Part shown: piece by piece, positions 3,527 through 25,802 of the stretch
Layout of the letters: every line of letters begins with the position of its first letter
Numbering within the stretch: position 1 is the first letter of the stretch
Assembly: GCF_030384885.1 (NCBI RefSeq)
Contig: NZ_CP128613.1
Source of the DNA: Escherichia coli
GTDB taxonomy: Bacteria > Pseudomonadota > Gammaproteobacteria > Enterobacterales > Enterobacteriaceae
Length of the DNA: 64,000 bases
Reading direction: 5' to 3' (one strand)
Program-made: the position numbers and the translations under genes
Notes under the pieces: model-generated
Databases searched by the model: none
Told to the model about the DNA's origin: nothing
The model's input: only the letters and a program-made list of their open reading frames with translations

Positions 3527-3529
3527 CAT

Positions 3530-3830
3530 GACTCCTTGCTCATCGCATGAAGACTCCGAGAGTGAACCCCGTTAGAAAGGGTCACACGCATGCCCCAATA
3601 CAAAATTATTTGCTCGCCTCTATCGCTGCCTTTTCCTCAAAAGTGGAAAAGACAATGATAAAAAAGTTACAAATATGTTAATGAATAAACCAAATTGATC
3701 CCGTAATTATATTACGCCGCAAAATCCTTACAATAAACAGGTTTTTATTGAGCAAATTTGCATTTTTCGACAGTGATCAATTTATAGCGAAATTGTCACG
3801 ACCTCACCAATTTGATCTACGACAATTTAT
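3530..3830 (-). promoter_or_regulatory. cydAB upstream control region (long AT-rich leader/promoters; ArcA/FNR-regulated in K-12)
   Basis: Position immediately 5-prime of cydA; AT-rich with several TTGAT/ATCAA-like half-sites; individual sites not resolved by eye. Confidence 0.4.
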
Positions 3831-4330
3831 CGTGTTTTGCAGATTTTTTTCAAGAATTAAAAATTGATTTATATCAAAACCAGTCAAATATGTTAATTAT
3901 GTATAAACCATAGACCATTGGTAATTTTATTGTTAATTTATTGTGAAATATTTATGTAACACAATTATTACAATAAAAAGACATAGATAAAAAACCAGTG
4001 TTTTATTTAACAGAATCGCCTTATCAACTTTTTATAATACCAATTGATTAGAGTAGCCAATTTGTTGCTATTTTACATAACATATTTTTATCAAAGTTAA
4101 TTGATTGTTGCCTTTATGAGCATCGCCGTAAGACCGCCATGTTATTGTTTCATTTGTAATAATCACCAATAAGTATCGATGAGAGAGATATCGCTTAACA
4201 GAGGCGACTGTGTCTGCATGAACACAGGCAACTTTCGCCTGATAAACGAAAAATGAGCGATTTTTGCAAGTTAGTTTTTCTATAGCCGGGTACGCTGAGC
4301 GCCTCGCTTGATTACAATGAGGTTGCTGCC

Positions 4331-5275
4331 ATGGGTCTTGATAATATAGGTTCTGTTGTCAATCGCTTCTCTGGTTGGCCATCAAATGATCCTCTAAAAA
4401 CAGATAACGAATCAATGACATCACCCGTGACTGTGCAGGTAATAAAGTTGATTGCCGCCATCCTTGACCCACATCGGATAGTCGTTGGTATCGATACACT
4501 TTATACAACGCAGCGCAAAACATTTACCTCAGAGGGTCAACAACTCATTGAATCAGCATTGAAAACACTTAATGTGATGAATTTAAATAGCCTGGAAACA
4601 GATCGCGATGAGGAGGGTAACTATCTGGCTTTTGGATATAACGTTGACACTCCTGACAGAATAACCGTTTCTGCTTATAATGAAAAAAAACCTTTCTGTT
4701 ATGGCCAATGTCTTTTAATACAGGATGAAGAACCAGATTTATTTAACCTGGTAAAAATTAAAACCTTTGAAGCCAGGCATAATTATGTTTCTAAATTGAT
4801 GAGCGATCCGGAATTTATGTTTAAATTCAGTTATAGCGCCCAACAAAATAGATTAGAACCTCATCTTCTGGTTCCCACTTATTTCCCTCTGAAAACAAAC
4901 CAACCGGTTACGCTAGAGGATGTACTGATACTTTATCGTTTCTTTAAAATGAATGGCGATTTTAATATATTAACATCAGATGAATACATGAGTATCATGA
5001 CACCTCTGATGAAGTGTGAGCGTAGTGTCCACGACCATAACAGGTATGTGACGGGCAAAGATGCTCTTCTTCTGGACAATCCTCCGTCTGGTAACCAGAT
5101 ATATTTCCATATTTCCCCTGACGAATCAGCAACACTTGTCCTTTATTTTTCAGACAATAACCTTGAATCCTTCGTCTTTGAAAATGATATTCCGAGCCAG
5201 TATCGACATTTCAAAATGTTTACCAATTTAGCACTAGTTATTGATCAGTTAACCGACGCCAATCAAATACTTTAA
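4331..5275 (+). CDS. Hypothetical protein (314 aa), no recognisable family; low-GC accessory gene
   Basis: ORF preceded by a GAGG Shine-Dalgarno about 9 nt upstream; AT-rich codon usage unlike the flanking core genes; no transmembrane segments or known motifs seen. Confidence 0.55.
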   Translation: MGLDNIGSVVNRFSGWPSNDPLKTDNESMTSPVTVQVIKLIAAILDPHRIVVGIDTLYTTQRKTFTSEGQQLIESALKTLNVMNLNSLETDRDEEGNYLAFGYNVDTPDRITVSAYNEKKPFCYGQCLLIQDEEPDLFNLVKIKTFEARHNYVSKLMSDPEFMFKFSYSAQQNRLEPHLLVPTYFPLKTNQPVTLEDVLILYRFFKMNGDFNILTSDEYMSIMTPLMKCERSVHDHNRYVTGKDALLLDNPPSGNQIYFHISPDESATLVLYFSDNNLESFVFENDIPSQYRHFKMFTNLALVIDQLTDANQIL

Positions 5276-5354
5276 TTTTCTATACAGCCCTGTGTAAAAT
5301 ATTGCTAAACAGTGCCCGGGGTTGATTTTTATTCCTCACGGTGATATTTAAATC

Positions 5355-5777
5355 ATGACCCCATCTCAGCTCTCTTTTAATACTCTTCCTGTCAATGCAA
5401 CATGCACTTCAGAGATAACAGTAAACACACAAAAATTCTCTGACATCCTCTACTCAGTGGGGTATTCCCTAAAGGATCTGGCTTATCTGAGCAGATGTCT
5501 GGCATCATTACACCCGACACTCGCCAAAAACATTTATGAAACGGAAAATCTCAGCGATCAAAAATTACTGCATATTGATTGCCGTAGTACAAATGAAATC
5601 AAGATAAATATCTTTTTTGGTCAGCAACGAGAAGGATTAATTGAAATTAGTTCTGACACAGTCATTTTTTCGATACTGTCTTCATTGATTGACTCAGCTA
5701 TTTCTGAACATCGACATCAAATCACCGTTAATGATTCAAATAATTCTGAACTATTTTATGAGGATTATACTGATTAA
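5355..5777 (+). CDS. Hypothetical acidic protein (140 aa), co-oriented partner of the upstream 314-aa gene
   Basis: ORF 79 nt downstream of the 314-aa gene on the same strand with the same AT-rich composition; D/E-rich C-terminus. Confidence 0.5.
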   Translation: MTPSQLSFNTLPVNATCTSEITVNTQKFSDILYSVGYSLKDLAYLSRCLASLHPTLAKNIYETENLSDQKLLHIDCRSTNEIKINIFFGQQREGLIEISSDTVIFSILSSLIDSAISEHRHQITVNDSNNSELFYEDYTD

Positions 5778-6320
5778 ATCCACTCTGTGCGAACCTGTCC
5801 TGCATTTATGCCAGAAGTATTAGAATCTTTGATTAACGTTACTCGTACTGGTAGCACCTTCATGTGCCCCTCTTTTTTACGAACAATCAAAAGAACTAAC
5901 AAAGGGCATAATTCGTATAAATCATTAACCATTTGTTATATTCAACATTTTTTTTACATTAAGCAGAGATGAATTGCAGTGAAATTCAAGTTAAATTTTA
6001 CAAAATGTATTACTCATGGCTAAAAAATCTCCCCAAAATGCAAATTAGAAGTTGATCACAATTATCTCAATACATCAAATAAAGTTAATTTTAAAAATTT
6101 AACATTCATGACATTAGTTGACATAACACGCTGAATTAAAATGAGAATTTAAAAACACACTTTAAACAATCATTTCCCGAAAGACATTTTGAAAATAGAT
6201 CAATTGCAACATTACGGTCAGATAAAGACACTCCTCTGATATTAAACCTGTGCCGTTATGAACGGCCATAAATACGACGTGTGTAACTTAATTTACTCTC
6301 TGTCTTACAAAGGATTACCC

Positions 6321-6770
6321 ATGAAGAAAGCAACACTTGTGATTGGCGTTATTGGCGCGGACTGCCATGCAGTAGGCAATAAAGTTCTGGACCGCGTTTT
6401 TAGCAACCATGACTTCAGAGTCATTAATCTGGGCGTAATGGTCAGCCAGGACGAATATATTGATGCTGCCATTGAAACTGGCGCTGACGCAATTGTCGTC
6501 TCCTCTATCTATGGGCATGGCGATATCGACTGTCTGGGCATGCGCGAACGCTGCATTGAGCGTGGCTTGGGGGACATCCTGCTCTATGTGGGCGGCAACC
6601 TGCTGGTCGGAAAACATGACTTCGCTGACGTGGAAACCAAGTTCAAAGAGATGGGATTTGATCGCGTCTTTTCCCCAAGTCATGACTTAGAAGATGTTTG
6701 TCAGCTGATGGCCCACGATATCAACCAACGTCATGACGTTGATACTCGCATTCTTGAAGAGGCAATCTGA
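6321..6770 (+). CDS. Glutamate mutase sigma (S) subunit, B12-binding (GlmS/MutS-type methylaspartate mutase small subunit)
   Basis: Translation [24 protein letters not shown]... contains the DxHxxG cobalamin-binding motif; AAGGA Shine-Dalgarno before the ATG at 6321 (the track ORF starts further upstream); followed by L and E subunits in the clostridial S-L-E order. Confidence 0.85.
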
Positions 6771-8158
6771 TGCAAATCGTCTCTGTCGATATTGGATCGA
6801 CGTGGACCAAAGCAGCCCTCTTCACCCGGGAGGGGGACGCGTTAACGTTGGTTAACCACGTTCTGACCCCAACCACCATCCATCATCTGGCAGAGGGATT
6901 TTTCTCCAGCCTTAACCAGGTGTTAAACGTAGATAATGCCCTCCCCCTGTTAAACCGTGGTGAGGTTGCATTGAAGTATTCCTCCTCTGCCAAAGGTGGG
7001 CTGGCGGTTGCCGCAATGGGATTGGTGCCTTCTATCACCCTGGAAACCGCGAAAGTAACCGCTCACTCTGCGGGTGCTAAAATTGCGCAATATTACGCCT
7101 ACAAGCTGAACCGCCGTGATATCCAGGCACTGGAAGAAACGCAGCCCGATATTCTCTTGTTCACCGGCGGCACCGACGGCGGAGAAGAAAGCTACGGACT
7201 GAATAACGCCCGTGTGCTGGCAGAATCCAAACTCGACTGCGCCATTATTTATGCCGGAAACCGGGATATTCAGGACAAGGTGCAGGAGATCCTCGGGCAT
7301 AAAGACCTGACCATCGTCGACAACGTTCTGCCCGATCTTGACCATCCGAACCCTTTAGCTGCACGCCAGGCTATCTGCGACATATTCCTTAAACGCATCG
7401 TTAAAGGGAAAGGGCTGGATGTCATTGTTGATAAAACAGGCGAAGAACCAATGCCGACACCATGGACGGTCTTTGAACTGGTGAAGGCAATCAGTAACGT
7501 CGATCACAGCTGGAAAGAGTTCATGCTGATCGACATGGGCGGCGCAACCACCGATGTCTATTCCGCCTGTGCCAACACGCTCTCGCCCGACACTGTTTTA
7601 CATGGCGTACCGGAACCCTTCGTAAAACGGACGGTGGAAGGCGATCTGGGAATGCGCGTCTCGGCAATGGTGGTTGGTGAAAGTGCGAAAGAGTTAGTCA
7701 GTGTGAATTTTGCTCAGCAACCCGCACAGTTGGACGCTTTTTATCATTACCTCCGTCATCTAGTCGCTCATCCCGACTACTTACCCGCGAATGCAGATGA
7801 AAAATATTTCGATACCGTCCTGGCCGGACTGTGTGTGGGTTATGCCACCGAAAGACATGCGGGCACCAAAAAAGAGGTCTGCACCTGCGTCGGCAATGTC
7901 GATTTACAGATGGGACGTGACCTGACAACCGTGCGTAAAGTCGTGGGTTCCGGCGGATGGCTCTCGCGTGCCAGTCAGTTCGATATGCATCACTGGTTGA
8001 AATACCGCGAGTTAAACGACGACGGTAAACGCATTCTCTTACCGACCGAATTTGAATATTACCGCGATTCCTGGGGGCTATTACCACTGCTGGCAAACGT
8101 CGCCAGAGTCGATCCGCTGGCCGCCGCGCGCACCAGTATTCAATGCTTAACCCTATAA
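6770..8158 (+). CDS. Glutamate mutase-associated MutL/GlmL protein (putative mutase chaperone/reactivase)
   Basis: 462-aa ORF whose start overlaps the S-subunit stop (TGATG); sits between the S and E subunits as in clostridial glm/mut operons. Confidence 0.75.
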   Translation: MQIVSVDIGSTWTKAALFTREGDALTLVNHVLTPTTIHHLAEGFFSSLNQVLNVDNALPLLNRGEVALKYSSSAKGGLAVAAMGLVPSITLETAKVTAHSAGAKIAQYYAYKLNRRDIQALEETQPDILLFTGGTDGGEESYGLNNARVLAESKLDCAIIYAGNRDIQDKVQEILGHKDLTIVDNVLPDLDHPNPLAARQAICDIFLKRIVKGKGLDVIVDKTGEEPMPTPWTVFELVKAISNVDHSWKEFMLIDMGGATTDVYSACANTLSPDTVLHGVPEPFVKRTVEGDLGMRVSAMVVGESAKELVSVNFAQQPAQLDAFYHYLRHLVAHPDYLPANADEKYFDTVLAGLCVGYATERHAGTKKEVCTCVGNVDLQMGRDLTTVRKVVGSGGWLSRASQFDMHHWLKYRELNDDGKRILLPTEFEYYRDSWGLLPLLANVARVDPLAAARTSIQCLTL

Positions 8159-8176
8159 CAATTAAGGCTGCAATCA

Positions 8177-9622
8177 ATGGAACTTCGAAATAAGAAATTA
8201 ACCCATGACGAATTCATGACCGAGCGGCAACAGGTATTGAAAACCTGGGAAACCGGCAAGGATGTTGAAAACTTTGAAGATGGCGTTAAATACCAACAAA
8301 CCATTCCTGAGCATAAACGCTTCTCTCTTGCCCTGCTGAAAGCAGACAAGGAAGGTAAAACCCTTAGCCAACCGCGCGCAGGCGTGGCGCTGATGGACGA
8401 ACACATCGAACTACTGAAAACACTACAAGAAGAGTGCGATCTGCTGCCGAGCACTATCGATGCATATACCCGTCTGAATCGGTACGAAGAAGCGGCTGTA
8501 GGGATTAAAAAATCCATCGAAGCCGGAACCTCTAAACTGAACGGTTTACCGGTAGTTAACCACGGCGTCGCAGCTTGCCGTCGCCTCACCGAAACTCTGC
8601 AAAAACCGCTACAGATTCGCCACGGCACGCCAGATGCGCGTTTGCTGGCTGAAATCTCGATGGCCAGCGGCTTTACCAGTTATGAAGGCGGCGGCATTTC
8701 CTACAATATTCCGTATGCCAAGCGCGTAACGCTGGAAAAATCGATCCGCGACTGGCAGTACTGCGATCGTTTAATGGGGATGTATGAAGAACACGGGATC
8801 CGCATCAACCGCGAACCGTTTGGCCCACTAACGGGTACGCTAATCCCGCCGTTTATCTCGCACTCTATCGCAATAATCGAAGGCTTGCTGGCACTGGAAC
8901 AGGGTGTGAAGTCTATCACCGTTGGTTATGGTCAGGTCGGCAGCCTGACGCAGGATGTCGCGGCGATCCAGTCTCTGCGTAAACTTGCACACGAATACTT
9001 TCAGAACTATGGCTATACCGACTATGAATTAAGTACCGTGTTTCACCAGTGGATGGGCGGCTTTCCGGAAGACGAATCGAAAGCGTTCGCCATTATCTCC
9101 TGGGGTGCAGCCGTCGCGGGGATGTCTGGTGCCACCAAAGTCATCACCAAAAGTCCGCACGAAGCCTGGGGCATCCCGACTGCTGCTGCCAACATTCAGG
9201 GGCTAAAAGCCTCCCGCCAGATGCTCAACATGGTCAACGAGCAGAAATTCCCGCCGTGCCCGGCGGTTGAACTAGAAATTGAACTGATTAAGAGCGAGGT
9301 TCGCGCGGTACTGAACAAAGTGTTCGAACTGGGTAATGGTGATATTGCGCGCGGTACGGTGCTGGCATTTGAAGCGGGCGTACTGGATGTGCCGTTTGCG
9401 CCAGCCGCCTGCAACGCAGGCAAAATTCTTCCGGTCCGTGACAACACTGGCGCGATTCGCGTACTGGAGGCCGGAGCCGTTCCATTGCCAAAAGATATTC
9501 TCGACCTCCACCACGATTACGTTGCTGAACGCGCGCGCTTTGAAGGACGCCAACCGACATTCCAGATGGTTGTAGATGACATCAATGCTGTATCCCACAG
9601 TAAATTAATAGGAAGACCATAA
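8177..9622 (+). CDS. Glutamate mutase epsilon (E) subunit (methylaspartate mutase large subunit)
   Basis: 481-aa ORF of typical E-subunit length, positioned between the L gene and the methylaspartate ammonia-lyase gene. Confidence 0.85.
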   Translation: MELRNKKLTHDEFMTERQQVLKTWETGKDVENFEDGVKYQQTIPEHKRFSLALLKADKEGKTLSQPRAGVALMDEHIELLKTLQEECDLLPSTIDAYTRLNRYEEAAVGIKKSIEAGTSKLNGLPVVNHGVAACRRLTETLQKPLQIRHGTPDARLLAEISMASGFTSYEGGGISYNIPYAKRVTLEKSIRDWQYCDRLMGMYEEHGIRINREPFGPLTGTLIPPFISHSIAIIEGLLALEQGVKSITVGYGQVGSLTQDVAAIQSLRKLAHEYFQNYGYTDYELSTVFHQWMGGFPEDESKAFAIISWGAAVAGMSGATKVITKSPHEAWGIPTAAANIQGLKASRQMLNMVNEQKFPPCPAVELEIELIKSEVRAVLNKVFELGNGDIARGTVLAFEAGVLDVPFAPAACNAGKILPVRDNTGAIRVLEAGAVPLPKDILDLHHDYVAERARFEGRQPTFQMVVDDINAVSHSKLIGRP

Positions 9623-10863
9623 TGAAAATAAAACAGGCCCTTTTCACCGCTGGCTACTCTTCATTCTATTTCGATGACCAGCAGGCGATAAAAAACGGAG
9701 CGGGTCACGACGGCTTTTTTTATACCGGAGAGCCGGTAACACAGGGGTTTAACGCCGTACGTCAGGCCGGGGAGTGCGTTTCGGTTCAGTTGATTCTGGA
9801 AAACGGTGCGGTCGCCGTAGGCGACTGTGCTGCCGTACAGTATTCCGGGGCAGGCGGTCGCGATCCACTGTTCCTCGCAGAGCACTTTATTCCGTTCCTC
9901 AACGACCATATCAAGCCATTACTGGTAGGCCGCGATGTGGATGCTTTCCTGCCGAATGCCCGTTTCTTCGACAAATTGCGTATTGACGGCAACTTGCTGC
10001 ATACCGCCGTACGTTACGGATTATCACAGGCGCTGCTTGATGCTACCGCGCTGGCAACCGGCCGTCTAAAAACTGAAGTGGTCTGTGATGAATGGCAGTT
10101 GCCACGCGTAGCGGAATCCATTCCATTATTTGGTCAGAGCGGCGACGATCGATATATCGCCGTCGATAAGATGATCCTTAAGGGCATCGACGTGCTGCCC
10201 CATGCGCTGATTAATAACGTCGAAGAGAAGCTGGGCTTTAAAGGTGAAAAACTGCGCGAATATGTCCGCTGGTTGTCGGATCGCATTCTGAGCAAGCGCA
10301 CCAGCGCACGCTACTACCCAACCCTGCACATCGATGTATACGGCACTATCGGTCTGATCTTCGATATGGATCCGCTTCGCTGTGCGCAATACATCGCCAG
10401 CCTGGAAAAAGAAGCGCAAGGCCTGCCGCTCTACATTGAAGGGCCGGTCGATGCCGGTAACAAGCCCGATCAAATTCGCCTGCTGACCGCGATTACCAAA
10501 GAGCTGACGCGCCTCGGTTCCGGCGTGAAAATTGTGGCCGATGAATGGTGTAACACCTACCAGGATATTGTTGATTTCACTGATGCCGCCAGTTGCCACA
10601 TGGTGCAAATCAAAACCCCGGATCTGGGCAGTATTCACAACATCGTCGATGCAGTTCTTTATTGCAACAGCCACAGCATGGAAGCGTACCAGGGCGGCAC
10701 CTGCAATGAAACTGATGTCAGTGCCCGCACCTGTGTCCACGTCGCCCTTGCTGCTCGCCCCATGCGTATGCTGGTAAAACCAGGGATGGGCTTTGACGAA
10801 GGCCTCGATATCGTCTTCAACGAAATGAATCGTACTATCGCGCTGTTGCAGGCTAAGGATTAA
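9622..10863 (+). CDS. 3-Methylaspartate ammonia-lyase (enolase superfamily)
   Basis: 413-aa ORF, start overlapping the E-subunit stop (TAATG); sequence MKIKQALFTAGYSSFYFDDQQAI... and length match MAL; operon context with glutamate mutase. Confidence 0.85.
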   Translation: MKIKQALFTAGYSSFYFDDQQAIKNGAGHDGFFYTGEPVTQGFNAVRQAGECVSVQLILENGAVAVGDCAAVQYSGAGGRDPLFLAEHFIPFLNDHIKPLLVGRDVDAFLPNARFFDKLRIDGNLLHTAVRYGLSQALLDATALATGRLKTEVVCDEWQLPRVAESIPLFGQSGDDRYIAVDKMILKGIDVLPHALINNVEEKLGFKGEKLREYVRWLSDRILSKRTSARYYPTLHIDVYGTIGLIFDMDPLRCAQYIASLEKEAQGLPLYIEGPVDAGNKPDQIRLLTAITKELTRLGSGVKIVADEWCNTYQDIVDFTDAASCHMVQIKTPDLGSIHNIVDAVLYCNSHSMEAYQGGTCNETDVSARTCVHVALAARPMRMLVKPGMGFDEGLDIVFNEMNRTIALLQAKD

Positions 10864-10866
10864 CAA

Positions 10867-12237
10867 ATGGCTCGTTCTTTTAAAGTCTTAGCGCCAACGG
10901 CAATCCTCGGGTATGGATTCCCGGAAGAGAGCTTCCGCAAAGCGATGGCAGAATCGCCCGATCTGATCGCCGTTGATGCAGGATCTTCCGATCCAGGTCC
11001 CCACTACCTCGGGGCAGGCAAACCGTTTACCGATCGCGCAGGAGTCAAGCGCGATCTGCGCTATATGATCACCGCAGGCGTGCAAAATAATATACCGGTG
11101 GTGATCGGAACGGCCGGCGGTTCTGGTGCCGCTCCACACCTGGAGTGGTGCCGAGAAATAATTCATGAGATTGCCCGGGAAGAGCGCCTCTCGTTCTCGA
11201 TGGCGCTGATCCCGGCAGACGTTGACAAAGCCATCGTCCACCAGGCGCTGGATAACGGCAAAATCACGGCGCTGGATTTTGTCCCGCCGTTAACCCACGA
11301 CGCGATTGACGAAAGTACGTATATCGTCGCGCAAATGGGCATCGAACCCTTCCAGCAGGCGCTGAAAGAAGGCGCGCAAGTGGTGCTGGGCGGGCGCGCT
11401 TACGACCCGGCCTGCTTTGCTGCGCTACCGATCATGCAAGGCTTTGATGAAGGTCTGGCGCTGCATTGTGGGAAAATCCTTGAATGCGCGGCAATCGCCG
11501 CAACGCCCGGCTCAGGCTCTGACTGTGCGATGGGCATCATTGATGACAACGGCTTTACGCTGAAGACATTTAATCCGAAGCGTAAATTTACCGAAACGTC
11601 AGCGGCTGCACACACACTGTATGAGAAATCCGATCCCTACTTCCTGCCTGGACCTGGCGGCGTGTTGAACCTGAAAGGCTGCACATTTAAAGCGGTCAAT
11701 GACGGCGAAGTGTACGTCAGCGGTTCTAAGCATGAAGAAACGCCGTATGCCCTGAAACTGGAAGGTGCGCGACGGGTGGGCTTCCGCTGTCTGACCATCG
11801 CAGGAACGCGCGACCCGATCATGATCGCCGGGATCGATAAAATCATCGATGAAGTCAAAACCAGCGTTTCGCGTAACCTGTCGCTCGACGATGACAGCAT
11901 TCGCATCAATTTCCACCTGTACGGCAAAAACGGGGTGATGGGCGACCATGAACCGATGCAAACTGCCGGGCATGAGCTGGGGATTGTCCTTGATGTAGTT
12001 GCACCGACCCAGGATATTGCCAATAGCGTTTGCTCGCTAGTGCGCTCTACCATGCTGCACTACGGCTATGAAAACCGCATCGCTACCGCAGGCAACCTGG
12101 CGTTCCCGTTCTCCCCTTCTGATATCCAGGGCGGGCCGGTATACGAATTTTCCATATATCACCTGATTGAAGCCAACGACGCTCTGCGTTTTGATTTCCA
12201 TATTGAACAGGTGACGCCAGAAGGAGTTCAGGCATGA
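10867..12237 (+). CDS. DUF1446/AtuA-like family protein of unknown function
   Basis: 456-aa ORF 4 nt after MAL in the same operon; family assignment is from memory of AtuA-like proteins and is not verified. Confidence 0.55.
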   Translation: MARSFKVLAPTAILGYGFPEESFRKAMAESPDLIAVDAGSSDPGPHYLGAGKPFTDRAGVKRDLRYMITAGVQNNIPVVIGTAGGSGAAPHLEWCREIIHEIAREERLSFSMALIPADVDKAIVHQALDNGKITALDFVPPLTHDAIDESTYIVAQMGIEPFQQALKEGAQVVLGGRAYDPACFAALPIMQGFDEGLALHCGKILECAAIAATPGSGSDCAMGIIDDNGFTLKTFNPKRKFTETSAAAHTLYEKSDPYFLPGPGGVLNLKGCTFKAVNDGEVYVSGSKHEETPYALKLEGARRVGFRCLTIAGTRDPIMIAGIDKIIDEVKTSVSRNLSLDDDSIRINFHLYGKNGVMGDHEPMQTAGHELGIVLDVVAPTQDIANSVCSLVRSTMLHYGYENRIATAGNLAFPFSPSDIQGGPVYEFSIYHLIEANDALRFDFHIEQVTPEGVQA

Positions 12238-12551
12238 AACAGTCAATTGTCTCACTGGCGCAAGTCATTCGTTCGAAAAATGCCGGACCTTACGAACTGG
12301 TTTTAGATATTTTATTTAAAACGAAAGAAAACTATGAGCGAGTAAAATCATCAGGGCAATTAACCCCAGAACTGATTGCGCGCTTATATCATGTTGAACC
12401 TGACTTTATTCATCGTATTGTCTGGTTTGATCCTTCTAACGCAGTAAAAATTGTCATGCCACGAGATATTATCTCCGGGAATGTAGGTGACAATGATGTC
12501 TATGGCGCACAGCAACATGCACCTTTATTAAATATGAGTTTCGATTTGTAA
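12234..12551 (+). CDS. Small conserved partner protein (105 aa), translationally coupled to the DUF1446-like gene
   Basis: ATGA start/stop overlap with the upstream gene; soluble; DUF1446 proteins commonly pair with a small DUF4387-type protein (recalled, not verified). Confidence 0.5.
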   Translation: MKQSIVSLAQVIRSKNAGPYELVLDILFKTKENYERVKSSGQLTPELIARLYHVEPDFIHRIVWFDPSNAVKIVMPRDIISGNVGDNDVYGAQQHAPLLNMSFDL

Positions 12552-12711
12552 AAATCCGAACACTTTTAGCCAACTGACATCCCGTCACTTATTGCAGCTC
12601 AACACTTCAGCTATTTGTAAGGTTGTTATAGCAGGTAGATGCCTGAATCTCTATTCAGGCATCCACTTCTCCTGATTCTGATTTATCGCCGTGCACCTGA
12701 TGGAGGAAAAA

Positions 12712-13992
12712 ATGAAGAAAATAAGTTTAACCATGATGATTCTTTTGGCGCTGGTACTTGGAATGATTATCGGCGTAGTGCTCAATAACACTGCTTCACC
12801 GGAAACAGCAAAACTCTATGCGCAAGAAATATCGATATTCACGACGATTTTCTTACGACTAATAAAAATGATTATCGCTCCGTTAGTGGTCTCTACCCTG
12901 GTGGTAGGTATTGCTAAAATGGGCGATGCCAAAGCCCTTGGTCGTATTTTTTCTAAAACACTCTTTTTATTTATTTGCGCCTCATTGCTGTCAATTGCCT
13001 TAGGCTTGATAACGGTAAATTTCTTCATGCCAGGCACAGGAATTAATTTTGTTGCACACGGTGCCGAAACCACCGGAGTGGTCGCGTCAGAACCCTTTAC
13101 ACTAAAAGTATTTATTTCGCATGCTTTCCCCACCAGCATTGTCGATGCCATGGCGCACAATGAAATTTTGCAAATCGTGGTGTTCTCAATTTTCCTCGGC
13201 TGTAGCCTGACGGCGATTGGTGAGAAAGGCAGCGCCATCGTTCACGCCTTAGATTCGCTGGCACATGCCATGTTAAAGCTCACTGGCTACGTCATGCTCT
13301 TCGCTCCCCTGACCGTATTCGCCGCTATTTCAGCATTGATTGCTGAACGAGGACTGGCAGTTATGGTGAGCGCCGGGATCTTTATGGGTGAATTTTATTT
13401 CACCATGTTATTACTTTGGGTGCTGCTTATCGGTCTGGCCATCGTTTATGTCGGCCCCTGCATCAGACGCCTGACCCGCGCCCTTTCAGAACCCGCCCTG
13501 CTGGCATTTACCACATCCAGTTCTGAAGCTGCTTTTCCGGGAACGCTTGAAAAACTGGAGCAATTTGGCGTTTCCCCCAAAATTGCCAGCTTTGTCTTAC
13601 CCATTGGCTACTCATTTAATCTCGTTGGATCAATGGCCTACTGCTCCTTCGCCACAGTTTTCATCGCCCAGGCCTGCAATATCCATTTATCCATCGGTGA
13701 GCAAATCACCATGCTGTTGATCCTGATGTTGACCTCGAAAGGAATGGCTGGCGTACCACGCGCCTCAATGGTGGTTATCGCCGCCACGCTCAACCAGTTC
13801 AATATTCCGGAAGCGGGGCTGATCTTGCTGATGGGCGTTGATCCGTTCCTTGATATGGGGCGTTCCGCGACAAACGTCATGAGCAACGCAATGGGCGCTG
13901 CGATGGTGAGTCGGTGGGAAGGCGAACATTTCGGCGAGGGTTGTCGGGGTAAAGCATTAAAACCCAACGAATCGAACGTTGCTCTGCCCTGA
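12712..13992 (+). CDS. Dicarboxylate/amino acid:cation symporter (DAACS family, GltP/DctA-like); probable glutamate or methylaspartate/mesaconate transporter
   Basis: About 426-aa polytopic membrane protein; GGAGG Shine-Dalgarno 6 nt before the ATG at 12712; resemblance to GltP/DctA-type symporters. Confidence 0.8.
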   Translation: MKKISLTMMILLALVLGMIIGVVLNNTASPETAKLYAQEISIFTTIFLRLIKMIIAPLVVSTLVVGIAKMGDAKALGRIFSKTLFLFICASLLSIALGLITVNFFMPGTGINFVAHGAETTGVVASEPFTLKVFISHAFPTSIVDAMAHNEILQIVVFSIFLGCSLTAIGEKGSAIVHALDSLAHAMLKLTGYVMLFAPLTVFAAISALIAERGLAVMVSAGIFMGEFYFTMLLLWVLLIGLAIVYVGPCIRRLTRALSEPALLAFTTSSSEAAFPGTLEKLEQFGVSPKIASFVLPIGYSFNLVGSMAYCSFATVFIAQACNIHLSIGEQITMLLILMLTSKGMAGVPRASMVVIAATLNQFNIPEAGLILLMGVDPFLDMGRSATNVMSNAMGAAMVSRWEGEHFGEGCRGKALKPNESNVALP

Positions 13993-14099
13993 GGGGGATC
14001 TTAAGCAATCAGAAGCCAATGACTACGCATTTTTATAAGCCGGATCATGAAGTTAGACGGCAATTAAGTAACACTAACGTTTAAGGTGAAAAGTGAAAT

Positions 14100-15752
14100 A
14101 TGTCCAAACCATTTATCTGGCAAGAACCGTTTCTACAAAATAAAGACGGTACAGAATATACATTAATTAGCGATCAACATATTACAGTAACGGAATTAGA
14201 CGGCGAAGAAGTGATAAAAATCGCTCCTGAAGCATTAACGCTGCTTGCCCGGCAGGCATTTTATGAAGCCTCTTTTTTCTTACGTTCCGCTCATTTGCAA
14301 CAGGTCGCCAGCATTCTTAACGATCCGCAGGCCAGTAGTAATGATAAATACGTTGCGTTGCAGTTATTACGTAATGCTGAAGTCTCAGCAAAAGGGGTAT
14401 TACCCAACTGTCAGGATACCGGCACCGCAACTATTGTTGCCAGTAAAGGGCAACAGATATGGACGGGAGGTAACGACGCTGAAGCCTTAAGCAAAGGCAT
14501 TTACAGTACTTTCCAGGAAAATAATCTGCGCTTTTCACAAAATGCGCCGCTGGATATGTATACCGAAGTCAATACGCAAACCAATCTCCCGGCGCAGATT
14601 GATATCAGCGCTGTCGCTGGTAATGAGTACCATTTTCTCTGTGTTAATAAAGGGGGCGGCTCCGCCAATAAAGCCGCGCTTTATCAGGAAACCAAATCCT
14701 TATTGCAACCAGAAAAACTGACCGCGTTTTTAATCGACAAAATGAAATCGTTGGGCACGGCCGCCTGCCCGCCCTACCACATCGCCTTTGTCGTCGGAGG
14801 GCTTTCAGCCGATCAAACCTTAAAAGTTGCCAAGCTGGCCTCAACGAAATATTACGACAATTTGCCCACCAGCGGAAATGAGCAAGGACAAGCATTCCGT
14901 GATATTGAGCTGGAAAAAGTATTGCTCGAGGCCAGTCAGCAATTTGGTATTGGTGCGCAATTTGGGGGTAAATATTTCGCTCATGATATTCGCGTCATTC
15001 GTCTGCCGCGTCACGGTGGCTCCTGCCCGATAGCTATGGCGCTCTCCTGTTCTGCCGATCGCAATATCAAAGCCAAAATTAACAAGCACGGTATCTGGCT
15101 GGAAAAACTCGAACACAATCCGGGGCAATATATTCCAGCCTCATTGCGGGAAGAAAATCACGCGCAACATGTACACCTGGATCTAAACCGTCCGTTGCGT
15201 GACGTGATGCAGGATCTCGCCAGATTACCGGTAGGTACCCGCGTGTCGTTAAGTGGTCCCATCGTAGTGGCGCGCGATATCGCCCACGCAAAAATAAAAG
15301 CGCGGCTGGATAGCGGCGAATCGATGCCGGATTACCTGAAGCATCATATTGTCTATTACGCTGGCCCGGCGAAAACACCGGAGAACATGGCCTGCGGTTC
15401 ACTGGGTCCAACCACGGGCGGTCGAATGGACGGTTATGTCGAAACCTTCCAGGCGGCTGGCGGCAGTCTGGTAATGTTATCGAAAGGTAACCGCAGCCAG
15501 CAGGTCACCGATGCCTGTCACAAACATGGCGGCTTCAATCTGGGAAGTATTGGCGGTGCAGCTGCGTTACTGGCGCAAGAATATGTCAAAAGTCTGCGTT
15601 GCCTGGAATACCCGGAGCTGGGTATGGAAGCGGTGTGGATGATGGAAGTGGAAAATCTGCCCGTATTCATCCTGGTCGATGATAAAGGCAATAATTTCTT
15701 TAGTCAGTTTGAGCAGCAACACCGCTGCGCCAGTTGCCCTGCGGGACATTAA
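14100..15752 (+). CDS. fumD: Class I (Fe-S) fumarate hydratase family enzyme; probable mesaconase (mesaconate hydratase) of the methylaspartate pathway
   Basis: 550-aa ORF with class I fumarase character and C-terminal Cys-rich region; genomic association with glutamate mutase and MAL; a mesaconase/fumarase FumD has been described in E. coli O157:H7 (recalled). Confidence 0.75.
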
Positions 15753-15761
15753 GGAAAATGA

Positions 15762-16364
15762 ATGGAAGCGCGAATTTCAACTGAACGGCATGTGCAGCGC
15801 CAGCAGAAATTGAAGGAACAGGTCGATACGCGCGTCGCGGCGGCGATAGAGAAAAAAGGGATCTTGATTGTTTTCACCGGCAACGGCAAAGGGAAATCCA
15901 CTGCCGCGTTTGGTACTGTAACGCGCGCGGTGGGCCATGGCAAAACGGTGGGGGTTGCGCAGTACATCAAGGGGCAATGGGACAACGGCGAATACAACCT
16001 TCTCCAGCCGCTGGGGGTTGAGTTTCATATTATGGGAACCGGTTTTACCTGGGAGACTCAGAACCGGCAAGCGGATATCGACGCGGCGAAAGAGGTCTGG
16101 TCGGAAAGCAAACGGATGCTGGCTGACAAGCGTTACGACTTAGTGGTGCTTGATGAGCTGACCTATATGCTGGCTTACCATTATCTGGACACCGAAGAAG
16201 TGATCACTTCTCTGCAAAACCGCCCGGCACAACAAAGTGTCATTGTCACCGGACGCAGTTGCCACAGTCAGATATTAAAAATGGCGGATACGGTCAGCGA
16301 AATCCGCCCCGTCAAACATGCTTTTGATAACGGCATTCAGGCGCAGCCGGGTATCGACTGGTAA
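15762..16364 (+). CDS. Cob(I)alamin adenosyltransferase (BtuR/CobA family), island-encoded copy
   Basis: 200-aa ORF with P-loop GNGKGKST and overall resemblance to BtuR; functionally coherent with a B12-dependent mutase. Confidence 0.8.
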   Translation: MEARISTERHVQRQQKLKEQVDTRVAAAIEKKGILIVFTGNGKGKSTAAFGTVTRAVGHGKTVGVAQYIKGQWDNGEYNLLQPLGVEFHIMGTGFTWETQNRQADIDAAKEVWSESKRMLADKRYDLVVLDELTYMLAYHYLDTEEVITSLQNRPAQQSVIVTGRSCHSQILKMADTVSEIRPVKHAFDNGIQAQPGIDW

Positions 16365-16397
16365 TAACTGCGCCTGGCATCCCGCCAGGCGCAGGTT

Positions 16398-17303
16398 TTA
16401 CATCTCCTGCGGTACGACCGATTTCGCCAGCAACCATTCACGAAATTGCTGCAAGTGCGGCGAGTCAGACTTCTCTTCCTGCCACGTCATAATAAAACGA
16501 TTACCGGTACGAATAGGCACATCACAGGGAATCACCATATCGCCACTATCCAAATCATGTTGAATAGCGAACCGTGGTAACAGCGCCACGCCGAGATTAG
16601 AGCGCACGGCGGCAATCAGCATTGAAAGCAAATCGAAACGTGGTCCGTTATTGACCAGCGGACTGCTAACGCCAGATAAAGCAAACCACTCTTCCCAGCC
16701 AGTAATACGGGTGCTTTGATGCAGAAGTGGTAACTCAGTAAGCAGTTCTGCCACTGACAGTTTTTGATCGGACATTGCAAGCAAACTGCCGCTGCATACC
16801 GGCAAAATCTCCTCTTCAAAGAGATATTCGACCTCCGCCCAGGGCGCGCAAAAATTTTCGCGCATAATGACAGCATCGTACTCCCGATTAAGAAAATCGC
16901 CGTTATTAGCTAAAGAATGAATATTAACAATAATATCGGGATGTAACTTTGTGAATTCATGTAAATTTGGGATTAACCAGTGGGTACTAAACGTAGGATT
17001 AACGGCAAGTTCAATAACCTGAACCGTAGGCTGCCAGGTCATAATCGTATTGGTATCGCGTTCCAGCTTATTTAATGTTTCTTTTACTATCCCCAGGTAA
17101 TACTTCCCTGCATCATTAAGAAAAATGCGTTTTTTAGAGTGTGAAAATAACGGAGTATGTAAAAATTCCTCCAGCGCACTTACTTGTCTGAATACAGCAC
17201 TTTGGGTTAACGCTAACTCCTCTGCCGCTCTGGTATAGCTTTCATGACGTGCGACGACCTCAAAAGTCACCAGCAGCTCCGTTTTAGGTATTTTTCCTCG
17301 CAT
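16398..17303 (-). CDS. LysR-family transcriptional regulator
   Basis: N-terminal helix-turn-helix TFEVVARHESYTRAAEELALTQSAVFRQVSALE followed by a LysR substrate-binding region; the track ORF uses a TTG upstream, ATG at 17303 preferred. Confidence 0.8.
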   Translation of the reverse strand: MRGKIPKTELLVTFEVVARHESYTRAAEELALTQSAVFRQVSALEEFLHTPLFSHSKKRIFLNDAGKYYLGIVKETLNKLERDTNTIMTWQPTVQVIELAVNPTFSTHWLIPNLHEFTKLHPDIIVNIHSLANNGDFLNREYDAVIMRENFCAPWAEVEYLFEEEILPVCSGSLLAMSDQKLSVAELLTELPLLHQSTRITGWEEWFALSGVSSPLVNNGPRFDLLSMLIAAVRSNLGVALLPRFAIQHDLDSGDMVIPCDVPIRTGNRFIMTWQEEKSDSPHLQQFREWLLAKSVVPQEM

Positions 17304-17892
17304 AATGCCGTCCGTGAAAAAATAACAATTCAAAAATTATTTTATAAAAAACAGTAGCACTAATGAATATCATAATTCAAATAAACAAACCAGTCAGCTA
17401 TATGTCTAACCAGGAAAATAAAGTGACAATAATCCTAAAACAGGAATTTCACCTCAGTTATCCGCATGCAATACTTTAAAGCTATTATTGCAAGAATATT
17501 ATTCATATACATGAATATACTCTAAATAAGTCAAGTTGCAGGAAGGGAACAAATAATGAATATCCAGAAGCTTACATAAGTAAGTGACCTGGGTGAGCGA
17601 ACATCGATGCAGCACATGCAACTTGAATTATGACAAGTATACAATGATAAATTTATATACCCTATGTTATATATTATCTATGTCCGGTTAAATTGAATGA
17701 GTCATAGCCTTAAAAGACTTCACAAAAGATAATTCCTCTTTAACAATAAGCCAGATTTACCACTTGTAAAACTTGCTATCGCCACATACACTACGCGCGT
17801 TTTCTTTCCCTTTTGCTGGCTGCTGACCGGAAAGACAAAATTACCCTCGCAATACAGGGGGTTGATTAACGTCTATATTTCAGGACAGCGTT

Positions 17893-19290
17893 ATGCATCA
17901 TCTTTCAAGGCTTGATAAAGCCTTTCTGCGCAAAGGGATCCAACTTTCCCGCGCCAACAATATTGTTTCATTATGTCGTCCATCAGGAGCCAGTGCCCGC
18001 GTACTGCTGCCGGACGAACTGCTGCTGGAAGAAAAAGCAGTGACACAACTGCTTGATTTTGCAGAAGTGAAGATACCAGGCCATCCAGGTTACGTACGCC
18101 AGACCTGTGCGACGCCAGATTTTCATCCCGGCAATGGCGTCCCCGTTGGCGCGGTGGTGGCCTCTACGCCGGATTTAGTCATTCCTGCGGCCATCGGCAC
18201 CGATATTTCTTGTGGCATGCGGCTGCTGACGACCGGATTAACACTTGAGCAAGCCGAAGCGCATAAAGACATCATCACTCAGCGGTTAACGCAAGTGCTA
18301 CTGCAAAATGAGCGCGATGTTCCGTTATCCGCACAGGCGTTCACCGCGCTTTTTGATGGCGGACCGGCAGAGTGCATGTCAGCCTTGCCATCAGCAGGTC
18401 TCTGGACACGCACGAATATCCCCCGAATGGTACAAGAGATTGACCGCTGCATTGGGCTTAACGAGCATAACAGTCATTCGCGTTATGCCCCACCCGCCCT
18501 GCTGGCAACGGACCGCGCATTACTCCGCGATCCTTGTCTGGGTACGCTGGGTTCAGGTAATCATTTTATTGAACTTCAGGTCGTTGATAGCGTGGTTGAT
18601 CGCCATGTAGCCTGGCAACAAGGGCTGAAAACAGGCGATATTGTGGTGATGATCCACAGTGGATCGCGAGATGTTGGCTTTTACGTCGGAAGACGCTGGA
18701 TGGATCGCGCCCGTGCTGAATGGCCCACCGGACATAAACATCCACAAAGCGGGTTATATGGTCTGGCAGGCGGACTGGCGGAGGAATATCTACAAGCGAT
18801 AGGAATGGCGGCGCGTTACGCGTGGTTAAATCGCGTGACAATTGCCGAAATGGTGCGCGTATGTCTTGCCAATCTCTTTCATCAGGACAATTCGCATCTG
18901 GTGGTGGATGTGCCACATAACATCATCCTTCGCGAGCATGAAATGAATATTCATCGCAAAGGCGCAACACCGGCACGAGTGGGCAATCTGGCGTTAATCC
19001 CCGGTTCAATGGGCGATTATTCCTGGCTTGCGGTAGGTTGCGGCAACCCGGAGTGGCTGTGGTCATGCAGTCACGGAGCAGGACGCAGCCAGCGTCGGCA
19101 GGCCATGCGCTCACGCGCGACTGAAGAGTCAACGTTGCCGTGGCAATGCGTCACATTGCGCGAAGAACGACGTCTTGAAGAAGCGCCAGCGGCTTATAAA
19201 GATATTGGTCCGGTTATCGAAGCTCAACAAGAAGCCGGATTAATTCAGCCAGCGGTCAGATTTCGACCGTGGTTAACGTTTAAAGCATAA
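17893..19290 (+). CDS. RtcB-family RNA ligase-like protein (orphan paralog, 465 aa)
   Basis: Motifs IPAAIGTDISCGM and C-terminal CSHGAGRSQ resemble RtcB metal-binding and active-site regions; no rtcA, rtcR or prfH-like gene nearby. Confidence 0.75.
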   Translation: MHHLSRLDKAFLRKGIQLSRANNIVSLCRPSGASARVLLPDELLLEEKAVTQLLDFAEVKIPGHPGYVRQTCATPDFHPGNGVPVGAVVASTPDLVIPAAIGTDISCGMRLLTTGLTLEQAEAHKDIITQRLTQVLLQNERDVPLSAQAFTALFDGGPAECMSALPSAGLWTRTNIPRMVQEIDRCIGLNEHNSHSRYAPPALLATDRALLRDPCLGTLGSGNHFIELQVVDSVVDRHVAWQQGLKTGDIVVMIHSGSRDVGFYVGRRWMDRARAEWPTGHKHPQSGLYGLAGGLAEEYLQAIGMAARYAWLNRVTIAEMVRVCLANLFHQDNSHLVVDVPHNIILREHEMNIHRKGATPARVGNLALIPGSMGDYSWLAVGCGNPEWLWSCSHGAGRSQRRQAMRSRATEESTLPWQCVTLREERRLEEAPAAYKDIGPVIEAQQEAGLIQPAVRFRPWLTFKA

Positions 19291-19291
19291 A

Positions 19292-19316
19292 AAAGGCCAT
19301 CATATGATGGCCAACC
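19292..19316. terminator. Bidirectional rho-independent terminator shared by the RtcB-like gene (+) and the sucD 3-prime UTR (-)
   Basis: Perfect hairpin aaaaaggccatcatatgatggcc flanked by A-run and T-run equivalents on both strands. Confidence 0.65.
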
Positions 19317-19387
19317 ATGTCGAAACCGACAGCCCTTCGCCATTCCTGTAAAGGGAAGCGGCGAGGGCTATTTCTTATTACAGATAT
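19294..19387 (-). ncRNA. sdhX: Probable SdhX (RybD) sRNA derived from the sucD 3-prime UTR
   Basis: Positional inference: the interval between the sucD stop and the terminator hairpin corresponds to where SdhX is processed from the sdh-suc transcript in K-12; sRNA sequence not independently verified. Confidence 0.4.
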
Positions 19388-20257
19388 TTATTTCAGAACA
19401 GTTTTCAGTGCTTCACCGATATCCGCCAGGCTGCGAACGGTTTTCACGCCTGCGGCTTCCAGAGCAGCGAATTTCTCATCCGCAGTCCCTTTCCCACCGG
19501 CAATGATGGCACCCGCGTGGCCCATACGTTTGCCTTTCGGCGCAGTTACACCAGCGATGTAACCTACAACTGGCTTGGTAACGTGCTCTTTGATGTACGC
19601 AGCCGCTTCTTCTTCAGCGCTACCGCCGATCTCACCGATCATCACGATCGCTTCGGTCTGCGGATCTTTTTCGAACATTTCGAGGATGTCGATAAAGTTA
19701 GAGCCAGGGATCGGGTCGCCGCCGATACCAACACAGGTCGACTGACCGAAACCGTAATCCGTGGTCTGTTTAACCGCTTCATAGGTCAGTGTACCGGAAC
19801 GGGAAACGATACCCACTTTACCCGGTTTGTGAATGTGACCAGGCTGGATGCCGATTTTACATTCACCCGGAGTGATAACGCCCGGGCAGTTCGGGCCGAT
19901 CATGCGTACGCCAGCTTCGTCCAGTTTCACTTTCACGGTCAGCATATCCAGCGTCGGGATGCCTTCAGTGATGGTGATAATCAGTTTGATACCTGCGTCG
20001 ATGGCTTCCAGAATGGAGTCTTTGCAGAACGGAGCCGGTACGTAGATAACAGAAGCGGTAGCGCCAGTGGCAGCAACGGCTTCACGCACGGTGTTGAACA
20101 CCGGCAGACCAAGGTGGGTAGTACCGCCTTTACCAGGGGTTACGCCGCCAACCATTTTAGTGCCGTATGCAATGGCCTGTTCAGAGTGGAAAGTCCCCTG
20201 GCTACCAGTAAAGCCCTGGCAGATAACCTTGGTGTTTTTATCAATTAAAATGGACAT
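19388..20257 (-). CDS. sucD: Succinyl-CoA synthetase alpha subunit
   Basis: 289-aa [48 protein letters not shown]...; 1-nt overlap with sucC. Confidence 0.97.
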
Positions 20258-21423
20258 TATTTCCCCTCCACTGCGGCAACAACCTGCTGAGCTGCATCCG
20301 TCAGACCTTTTGCTGCAATAATATTCAGGCCGCTGTCAGCCAGTTTCTTCGCGCCGAGTTCGGCGTTGTTACCTTCCAGACGTACCACGACCGGTACGTT
20401 AACACCCACTTCCGCTACCGCGCCGATGATACCGTCAGCGATCAGGTCGCAACGAACGATACCACCGAAGATGTTAACCAGAACGGCTTTCACTTTGTCG
20501 TCAGAGAGGATGATTTTGAACGCTTCGGTTACACGTTCTTTGGTTGCGCCACCGCCAACGTCCAGGAAGTTAGCTGGTTCGCCACCGTGCAGTTTAACGA
20601 TGTCCATGGTACCCATCGCCAGACCTGCGCCGTTAACCATACAACCGATGTTACCGTCCAGCGCAACGTAGTTCAGTTCCCACTGTGCAGCCTGTGCTTC
20701 ACGTGGATCTTCCTGCGACTGGTCGCGCATTTCGCGCAGATCCGGCTGGCGGAACAGTGCGTTGCCATCAGCACCCAGTTTACCGTCGAGGCAGATCAGA
20801 TCGCCCTGTTTGGTAATAACCAGCGGGTTAATTTCGATAAGAGCAAGGTCGCGCTCAAGGAAAATGGTCGCCAGACCCATGAAAATTTTGGTGAACTGTT
20901 GAACCAGTTTACCTTCCAGGCCCAGTTTGAACGCCAGCTCACGCCCCTGATACGGCATCGGGCCAGTCAGCGGATCAAGCGCAACTTTGTGGATCAGGTG
21001 CGGAGTTTCTTCCGCCACTTTTTCGATTTCCACGCCGCCTTCAGTGGAGGCCATAAAGACCACGCGACGGGAACTACGGTCTACAACGGCACCAAGATAC
21101 AGCTCTTTAGCGATATCGGTCGCTGCTTCAACCAGAATCTGGTTAACCGGTTGGCCATTAGCATCTGTTTGATACGTTACCAGACGCTTGCCCAGCCAGT
21201 TTTCTGCAAAAGCACGGATGTCTTCTTTGCTGTTTACAACTTTCACACCGCCCGCTTTACCGCGGCCACCAGCGTGAACCTGACATTTCACTACCCACGG
21301 ACCGGCACCGATTTTTGAAGCGGCTTCTTCTGCTTCGCGCGGAGTAGTACAGGCATAACCCACCGGTGCTGGTAAGCCATAGCGGGCAAACAGTTGTTTT
21401 GCCTGATATTCATGTAAGTTCAT
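20257..21423 (-). CDS. sucC: Succinyl-CoA synthetase beta subunit
   Basis: 388-aa [64 protein letters not shown]... Confidence 0.97.
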
Positions 21424-25726: not shown

Positions 25727-25802
25727 TAGGCCGGATAAGGCATTCACGCCGCATCCGGCCCTGGTTGCCTGATGCGACGCTTGCGCGTCTTATCAGGCCT
25801 GG
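25727..25802. repeat. REP/BIME palindromic repeat unit in the sdhB-sucA intergenic region
   Basis: Sequence gtaggccggataaggc...gcatccggcc and gcctgatgcgacgcttgcgcgtcttatcaggcc are typical REP palindromes. Confidence 0.8.

Follow-up and report, generated by a model that had tools for sequence, protein, structure and literature searches.

Genes and features of the sucD downstream region

The window, that is, the whole 64,000-nt stretch of Escherichia coli DNA analyzed here (contig NZ_CP128613.1), carries the sdhCDAB-sucABCD operon on its minus strand. The last gene of this operon is sucD, and the interval under study, 19292-19387, is the sucD 3' UTR read backwards. It is flanked on the other side by an RtcB-family gene and by a set of strain-variable genes (Table 1). 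The 4 kb surrounding the interval are 100% identical to E. coli 2013C-4282 (NZ_CP027579.1), from which the RefSeq annotation was taken. The initial annotation of the interval calls for two adjustments: the plus strand, on which it expected the hairpin found at this site to act as a terminator, is the rtcB strand, the sdh-suc/SdhX transcript being read from the minus strand; and its starting point, 19292, sits within an A/U tract, the 3' end of the SdhX small RNA (sRNA) lying at 19289.

Table 1. Features around the sucD 3' UTR, in window coordinates
Feature	Position	Strand	Description
Strain-variable segment	3903-19287		From the cydA upstream region to the SdhX terminator; near cydA, K-12 is homologous up to 3902
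LysR-family regulator of the glutamate-fermentation cluster	16398-17303	minus	Pfam HTH_1 and LysR_substrate, and annotation; divergent from rtcB
RtcB-family RNA ligase gene, intact	17893-19290	plus	465 aa; convergent with sucD; stop codon TAA at 19288-19290
Junction zone	19283-19288		Right side common to all E. coli; left side haplotype-specific
U6 tract of the SdhX intrinsic terminator, Hfq-binding tail	19289-19294	minus	T6 after the stem; A6 on the plus strand
Terminator hairpin GGCCAUC-AUAU-GAUGGCC	19295-19312	both	7-bp stem (5 GC pairs), 4-nt loop, -11.5 kcal/mol
SdhX seed UUCGACAUGGU	19324-19314	minus	Exact match to the seed in PMC6393394; invariant in 9/9 haplotypes compared
SdhX2 equivalent GUUUCGACAUGGUUGGCCAUCAUAUGAUGGCCUUUUUU	19289-19326	minus	G62 (19326) to U99 (19289), exactly 38 nt
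Long-SdhX 5' stem-loop	19331-19368	minus	Folds; holds the E. coli-specific katG-pairing region, C34 being 19354
sdhX (SdhX/RybD), the sucD 3' UTR	19289-19387	minus	99 nt; starts right after the sucD stop and closes with U6
sucD CDS	19388-20257	minus	ORF list and RefSeq annotation of NZ_CP027579.1; stop codon 19390-19388

An Rfam scan of the whole window at gathering thresholds returned a single match, a REP-type element between sdhB and sucA (25729-25799; naRNA4, RF02564, 79.4 bits), located in a known internal intergenic region of the operon. A permissive scan of 17200-19500 gave zero matches at E<=1. Since no Rfam model fits SdhX, this result was not counted against its identity, which consequently rests on the alignment with K-12 and on the published seed.

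The interval corresponds to the SdhX small RNA

SdhX is reportedly also treated by De Mets and colleagues, in 2019, as a 3' UTR-derived, Hfq-dependent sRNA of sdhCDAB-sucABCD. Throughout this study, SdhX is numbered with position 1 immediately downstream of the sucD stop, so that its position n corresponds to window position 19388 minus n. The RNA characterized by Miyakoshi et al. 2019 (PMC6393394), also named RybD, has the same site after the sucD stop, the same 99-nt UTR, seed and G62/38-nt form, and the same combination of hairpin and U6 as the present sequence. The differences are two SNPs and the nature of the downstream neighbour, which is rtcB here instead of mngR.

Read on the minus strand from 19387 to 19289, the 99 nt of SdhX (AUAUCUGUAAUAAGAAAUAGCCCUCGCCGCUUCCCUUUACAGGAAUGGCGAAGGGCUGUCGGUUUCGACAUGGUUGGCCAUCAUAUGAUGGCCUUUUUU) align with K-12 MG1655 at 97 positions, the two SNPs being C37U (19351), in the 5' stem-loop, and the hairpin loop nt at 19305. 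The published seed, with its core CGACAU, is located just before the terminator stem-loop and pairs with ackA and other targets (PMC6393394). In E. coli, G62 is the site of RNase E processing, and the 38-nt SdhX2 is the minimal functional form (PMC6393394); the equivalent 38 nt of the window are 37/38 identical to K-12. The 108-nt minus-strand region has a fold z-score of -5.75 relative to shuffled controls. On all sequence criteria usable here, the interval is thus SdhX: the initial annotation had proposed this identity and suggested an alignment with the K-12 sucD downstream region as a check, and the near-identity of the 99 nt, the exact seed and the intact 38-nt form bear it out. SdhX biogenesis is known from experiments in K-12 and Salmonella, and the near-identity to K-12 suggests that RNase E processing, Hfq binding and ackA repression would take place in this strain as well.

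When nine haplotypes are placed side by side, the 99-nt SdhX is almost invariant, the variable positions being 36, 37 and 46, all in the 5' stem-loop, together with the loop nt of the terminator hairpin. The 5' part of the molecule includes the katG region, whose pairing was proved by means of C34 with the mutant C34G (PMC6393394), and the segment from the sucD stop codon to the seed is poorly conserved beyond Escherichia (PMC6393394). Position 37, three nt from C34, is a U in this strain and a C in 8/8 other haplotypes compared; the resulting G-U wobble with katG is probably tolerated.

A terminator hairpin with a single U-tract

The stem of the terminator hairpin is invariant across strains. 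Its loop is polymorphic at 19305, with a T in this strain, a C in K-12 and O157 and an A in APEC O18, and the T found here turns the hairpin into a perfect 18-nt palindrome (GGCCATCATATGATGGCC). The two flanks of this palindrome differ markedly. On the minus strand, the stem is followed by UUUUUUAU, in which 7/8 nt are U; on the plus strand, the RNA continues as AACCAUGUCGAA, and only 2/8 of its first nt (AACCAUGU) are U. A scan of positions 17000-21000 with a terminator consensus returned one high-quality match, which is this hairpin on the minus strand only. The sequence thus presents the GC-rich hairpin and U stretch that form the 3' end of an SdhX-class RNA, and lacks the A-tract/U-tract flanks on both strands that define a bidirectional intrinsic terminator, the U-tract being present on the SdhX strand alone.

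Experimental mapping in K-12 places the RNA end at the same point. Term-seq detected a very abundant 3' end at 765148(+) in several conditions (PMC7815308 supplement), which the flanking sequence identifies as the last T of the T6, equivalent to window position 19289. The sdhCDAB-sucABCD transcript of this strain would be expected to end at a canonical intrinsic terminator composed of the hairpin, read from 19312 to 19295, and of the U6 running to 19289.

An RtcB-family gene abutting the SdhX 3' end

The gene convergent with sucD is annotated intact as an RtcB family protein (WP_000546470.1). Its product matches Pfam PF01139 with an E-value of 5e-96 (322.9 bits for a cut-off of 27), residues 63-464 covering positions 7-425 of the 426 of the model, and the GSGNHF, HRKGAT and HGAGR motifs of RtcB ligases are conserved in alignments with the Thermus and Pyrococcus proteins. 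Among proteins of solved structure, it is closest to Thermus TTHA1785 and to the RtcB of P. horikoshii. The gene has no rtcA or rtcR partner. The protein scores below all cut-offs of the NCBIfam RtcB equivalogs, which excludes two named assignments: the K-12 RtcB equivalog (PRK09588; 210.1 bits for a cut-off of 407) and the PrfH-linked release_rtcB (TIGR03073; 172.8 bits for a cut-off of 271.8).

The nearest relatives found outside Escherichia-like genomes are 57-62% identical and come from Betaproteobacteria (Acidovorax, Massilia, Undibacterium, Saezia, Snodgrassella) and from Gilliamella. In a set of species-representative genomes, this paralog had no close relatives in other Enterobacteriaceae, a distribution that suggests horizontal acquisition. 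A metagenome-assembled genome labelled 'Citrobacter sp.' (locus record L010) also carries an rtcB-SdhX junction; its rtcB and its suc genes, from sucD to sucA, are about 91% identical to those of E. coli.

The LysR-rtcB spacer (17304-17892) comprises 590 very AT-rich nt. Within it, at 17785, 108 nt before the ATG, starts the rtcB module that also occurs in the hutU-rtcB-sucD haplotype. The spacer has no Rfam match and no convincing rtcB promoter, and a visual inspection of 17785-17892 for a sigma-54/RtcR-type promoter gave no match.

At its other end, rtcB runs into the SdhX terminator. The initial annotation had placed its stop codon 2 nt ahead of the hairpin; the measured distance is 4 nt, from the end of the TAA to the first stem nt at 19295. 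The last two bases of the stop codon are the first two A of the A6, and form the complement of the final two U of SdhX, so that the gene overlaps the 3' end of the sRNA. The final two codons and the stop of rtcB (GCA TAA) consequently lie in or against the terminator tail.

A replaceable locus with four states

Alignment with K-12 shows homology beginning at 19283, rightwards only. When all four junction haplotypes described below are compared, common sequence begins at approximately 19285-19289 (from about 19287 for the TPR type), and every haplotype is alignable only from (G)(C/A)A(T/C)AAAAAAGGCC onward. Strain-variable DNA thus starts within about 1-6 nt of the U-tract, in agreement with the proposal of the initial annotation that accessory DNA begins at the sdh-suc terminator.

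A survey of 5426 complete E. coli genomes used probes of 151 nt that spanned the junction, each combining about 100 nt of haplotype-specific flank with the hairpin; a genome was counted when at least 80% of the probe was covered. Four junction types account for 5424/5426 genomes. The most frequent is the K-12 state, in which mngR adjoins SdhX (3883 genomes, 72%). It is followed by a junction with an rtcB remnant, typical of O157:H7 (838 genomes), by a junction with the gene of a TPR protein, present in B2 strains such as APEC O18 (547 genomes), and by the full rtcB-SdhX junction (156 genomes). This rtcB is an accessory gene. The exact LysR-rtcB-SdhX arrangement of the window occurs in 20/5426 genomes, and hutU lies upstream of the same rtcB in about 136 genomes.

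A composite order, island-LysR-rtcB-mngB-mngA-mngR-SdhX, was found in 124-134 genomes. There, rtcB ends in ...AAGGGGTAA and is followed by unrelated DNA, its homology to the window stopping at 19283. This different continuation makes the rtcB/terminator fusion one among several products of rearrangement. In the fused haplotypes, rtcB ends in AAGGCATAA / AAAGCATAA, with a stop at the same codon as the composite AAGGGGTAA. The outgroup-like genomes found, which are divergent and Escherichia-like, have one type each, fused in locus record L010 and composite in locus record L011. Either a composite ancestor lost mngBAR by deletion, giving the fusion, or the change went the other way, through an insertion of mngBAR.

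The content of the variable segment also changes between states. Here it holds glmS/L/E, mal, a transporter gene, fumD, cobO and a LysR gene, i.e. a methylaspartate/glutamate-fermentation cluster, in addition to rtcB; K-12 has mngBAR. The glutamate-fermentation cluster of O157:H7, with FumD, CobA and LTTR (Fig 5), was described by Kronen & Berg 2015 (PMC4682846), and the two clusters have the same genes (glutamate mutase, methylaspartate ammonia-lyase, transporter, class I fumarase, cobO and LysR) in the same order and in the same slot beside sucD. The difference lies in rtcB, a full 465-aa gene in the window, of which O157-type strains keep only about 100 nt of fragments, joined to the terminator tail in the same way. 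In O157-type strains, 449 nt unrelated to the window are present between the LysR gene and what is left of rtcB (O157:H7 Z1812; positions 4623-5071 of our locus record L002), and are annotated as a hypothetical protein in some records.

Selection on the terminator as the probable origin of the boundary

The position of the boundary, at the 3' end of a structured RNA gene, recalls integrase-borne islands that insert at tRNA, tmRNA and some sRNA genes, and would fit a site-specific recombination of the island into the 3' end of SdhX. Several observations argue against this scenario. The annotation places 15 genes between cydA and sucD, and no integrase or recombinase is among them. The hairpin and its tail are single-copy in the 64 kb, even when 2 mismatches are allowed, and no copy is present at the other edge of the island. 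A search for direct repeats flanking 3400-19500 returned nothing beyond chance 14-17-mers. Finally, four unrelated cassettes share one boundary, including the supposedly 'core' mng genes of K-12. Lacking both an integrase and an att-like repeat, site-specific integration at the SdhX 3' end was ruled out, and we grant it practically no probability.

A hairpin with a stem identical to that of the SdhX terminator occurs downstream of mngB in the composite haplotype of strain Survcare321 (AGGCCATC-CGAA-GATGGCCT; positions 6196-6215 of locus record L007). It may be due to chance or to an old duplication. Its involvement as a recombination partner of the SdhX hairpin was considered and rejected, as such an event would have retained 85 nt between the rtcB stop and this hairpin, and these are missing from the fused haplotype.

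The reading that we consider probable is more ordinary: a normal sdh-suc terminator and an SdhX gene working as in K-12, with an island edge that arises because purifying selection maintains the hairpin and U-tail while the non-essential DNA next to them turns over freely. Processing of the operon tail by RNase E would yield an Hfq-dependent SdhX with an unchanged seed and 38-nt core. Because termination of the operon and the production and stability of SdhX all depend on the hairpin and U-tail, purifying selection would hold them in place, while the DNA just beyond would be free to vary. Such selection on the tail, with none beyond it, would produce a conservation boundary 1-6 nt after the U-tract. 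We infer, from identity, geometry and census data obtained directly, that the boundary is a by-product of selection and of flanking deletion or recombination rather than the mark of site-specific integration. The cydA-sucD region is a replaceable slot of the pan-genome, with four states: mngR-mngA-mngB, the glutamate-fermentation cluster with an intact rtcB, the same cluster with a decayed rtcB, and the TPR gene.

Fate of transcripts converging on SdhX

The initial annotation regarded the hairpin as a bidirectional terminator, used convergently by the operon and by the accessory gene, and as a possible point of influence on SdhX levels. The convergent layout stands, rtcB being directed towards the hairpin; its supposed restriction to the island does not, as the mngR gene, found at this place in 72% of E. 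coli, among them the K-12 strain used to characterize SdhX, has the same disposition. The stop codon of mngR lies 10 nt from an identical hairpin stem, 5 nt beyond the SdhX end. In both the sucD/mngR and the sucD/rtcB pairs, the convergent gene ends a few nt from the hairpin and in the same reading frame relative to it. The pairs differ in the encoded product, a GntR-type repressor in one case and an RtcB ligase in the other, and in their contact with SdhX, which the rtcB stop overlaps by 2 nt and the mngR stop does not. Since mngR converges on the same hairpin in K-12, an effect on SdhX specific to the island is unlikely a priori, and an alteration of SdhX levels by convergent transcription is speculation. 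A literature search found no paper pairing SdhX with mngR or mngR with sucD, and no entry for an mngR-strand 3' end in the TERMITe supplements.

A class of bidirectional terminators was reportedly defined by SEnd-seq by Ju and colleagues in 2019. Bidirectional terminators are prevalent between convergent E. coli genes and involve RNA polymerase collisions (bioRxiv 10.1101/2022.10.23.513370). On a bidirectional reading, the palindromic hairpin would truly terminate both the sdh-suc/SdhX and the rtcB mRNAs, and rtcB expression and SdhX 3'-end formation would interfere with each other. As in this class, a stem-loop separates genes that converge, and one of the two is highly transcribed. Being a perfect palindrome, the hairpin forms the same -11.5 kcal/mol stem on either strand, and in 2/4 haplotypes a gene running towards it has its stop codon 4-10 nt away. 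The high transcription of sdh-suc makes collisions plausible. Moreover, the collision-type class requires a stem-loop without the appearance of an intrinsic terminator (bioRxiv 10.1101/2022.10.23.513370); as these elements are unlike intrinsic terminators, a hairpin-dependent, collision-driven termination of rtcB would be compatible with the missing U-tract.

Other data weigh against a bidirectional function. With two U among the 8 nt that follow the stem, the plus strand received no terminator call. In contrast to the bidirectional class, the U-tract and the mapped K-12 3' end are each found on one strand. The K-12 Term-seq table gives 3' ends on both strands for the convergent can/hpt pair (PMC7815308 supplement), whereas at this hairpin it lists the SdhX-strand end alone. 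No opposite-strand 3' end is reported from 762.9 to 771.4 kb (PMC7815308 supplement), which may come from a weak expression of mngR. The comparison with mapped 3' ends, which the initial annotation had recommended, gives its proposal no support, with the same reserve about mngR expression. As the convergent arrangement is in addition not specific to the island, we view a bidirectional function as improbable.

A different fate for the neighbour transcript is suggested by the complement of the long-SdhX 5' stem-loop. The plus-strand mirror of 19331-19368 folds with -22 kcal/mol and is followed by UAUUUCUU (19369-19376) / UAUUUCUUAUUA, 6/8 of these nt being U. This mirrored structure is the only terminator-like element available to the rtcB strand, and can be regarded from its sequence as a putative terminator. 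One possible consequence is an rtcB or mngR mRNA that extends past the SdhX hairpin to about 19376 and so acquires an 85-90-nt 3' UTR perfectly complementary to SdhX and its seed. Titration or RNase III cleavage would follow, and the neighbouring cassette would tune SdhX dosage. Readthrough is to be expected from a hairpin devoid of a plus-strand U-tract, and readthrough in the opposite direction is documented in K-12, where Term-seq with bicyclomycin revealed a Rho-dependent 3' end at 765604(+), antisense in mngR (PMC7815308 supplement). This position corresponds to the window minus strand, about 450 nt inside rtcB. The Rho-dependent end implies that the SdhX terminator is leaky and that operon readthrough enters the convergent gene, which here would be rtcB.

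Against an antisense tail, K-12 Term-seq lists no minus-strand (mngR-strand) 3' end near sucD. The poor conservation of the segment from the sucD stop to the seed outside Escherichia (PMC6393394) argues against a selected second terminator. The AT-rich spacer upstream of rtcB offers no convincing promoter. We therefore rate this model as quite unlikely, somewhat below a bidirectional function of the hairpin. A broader version is slightly less likely still. It would make the sucD 3' UTR a pair of back-to-back, strand-specific terminators, namely the SdhX hairpin with its U6 and the mirrored 5' stem-loop with its U-rich tail, so that the mRNA of the neighbour (rtcB here, mngR in K-12, none in the TPR type) would bear an 85-90-nt tail antisense to SdhX, acting as a cis sponge or an RNase III trigger. 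If this were true, SdhX dosage, and hence acetate/TCA coordination, would depend on the accessory cassette of each strain.

In the selection-based reading that we prefer, the fate of rtcB transcripts would be simpler. We infer that they most likely read through the hairpin, which would not be a canonical terminator for them, and would then be stopped at the mirrored stem-loop and U-rich tail (~19369-19380), by Rho, or by collision with sdh-suc RNA polymerase inside antisense sucD.

Scope of the findings

Earlier work had already described SdhX and its terminator, as well as the glutamate-fermentation cluster and the RtcB fold. The new elements are minor and descriptive: the census of four states, an rtcB stop codon that overlaps the SdhX 3' end, and the strain-specific C37U. 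Taken on its own terms, the junction has little importance, as it reflects ordinary biology with the same converging layout in K-12. Its interest lies in the cydA-sucD slot as a four-state locus whose right edge is pinned, within a few nt, to a mapped sRNA 3' end, a clear example of how the limit of replaceable DNA can be set by a terminator or sRNA tail. Were antisense transcription from a neighbour to modulate SdhX, to which nothing here points, the four natural haplotypes would provide a ready-made test.

A further rearrangement was observed in strain FDAARGOS_944, in which an IS1 lies inside sdhX (positions 3248-3945 of locus record L006). Homology to the window resumes only from 19315, right after the hairpin, so that this strain carries a naturally disrupted SdhX terminator.
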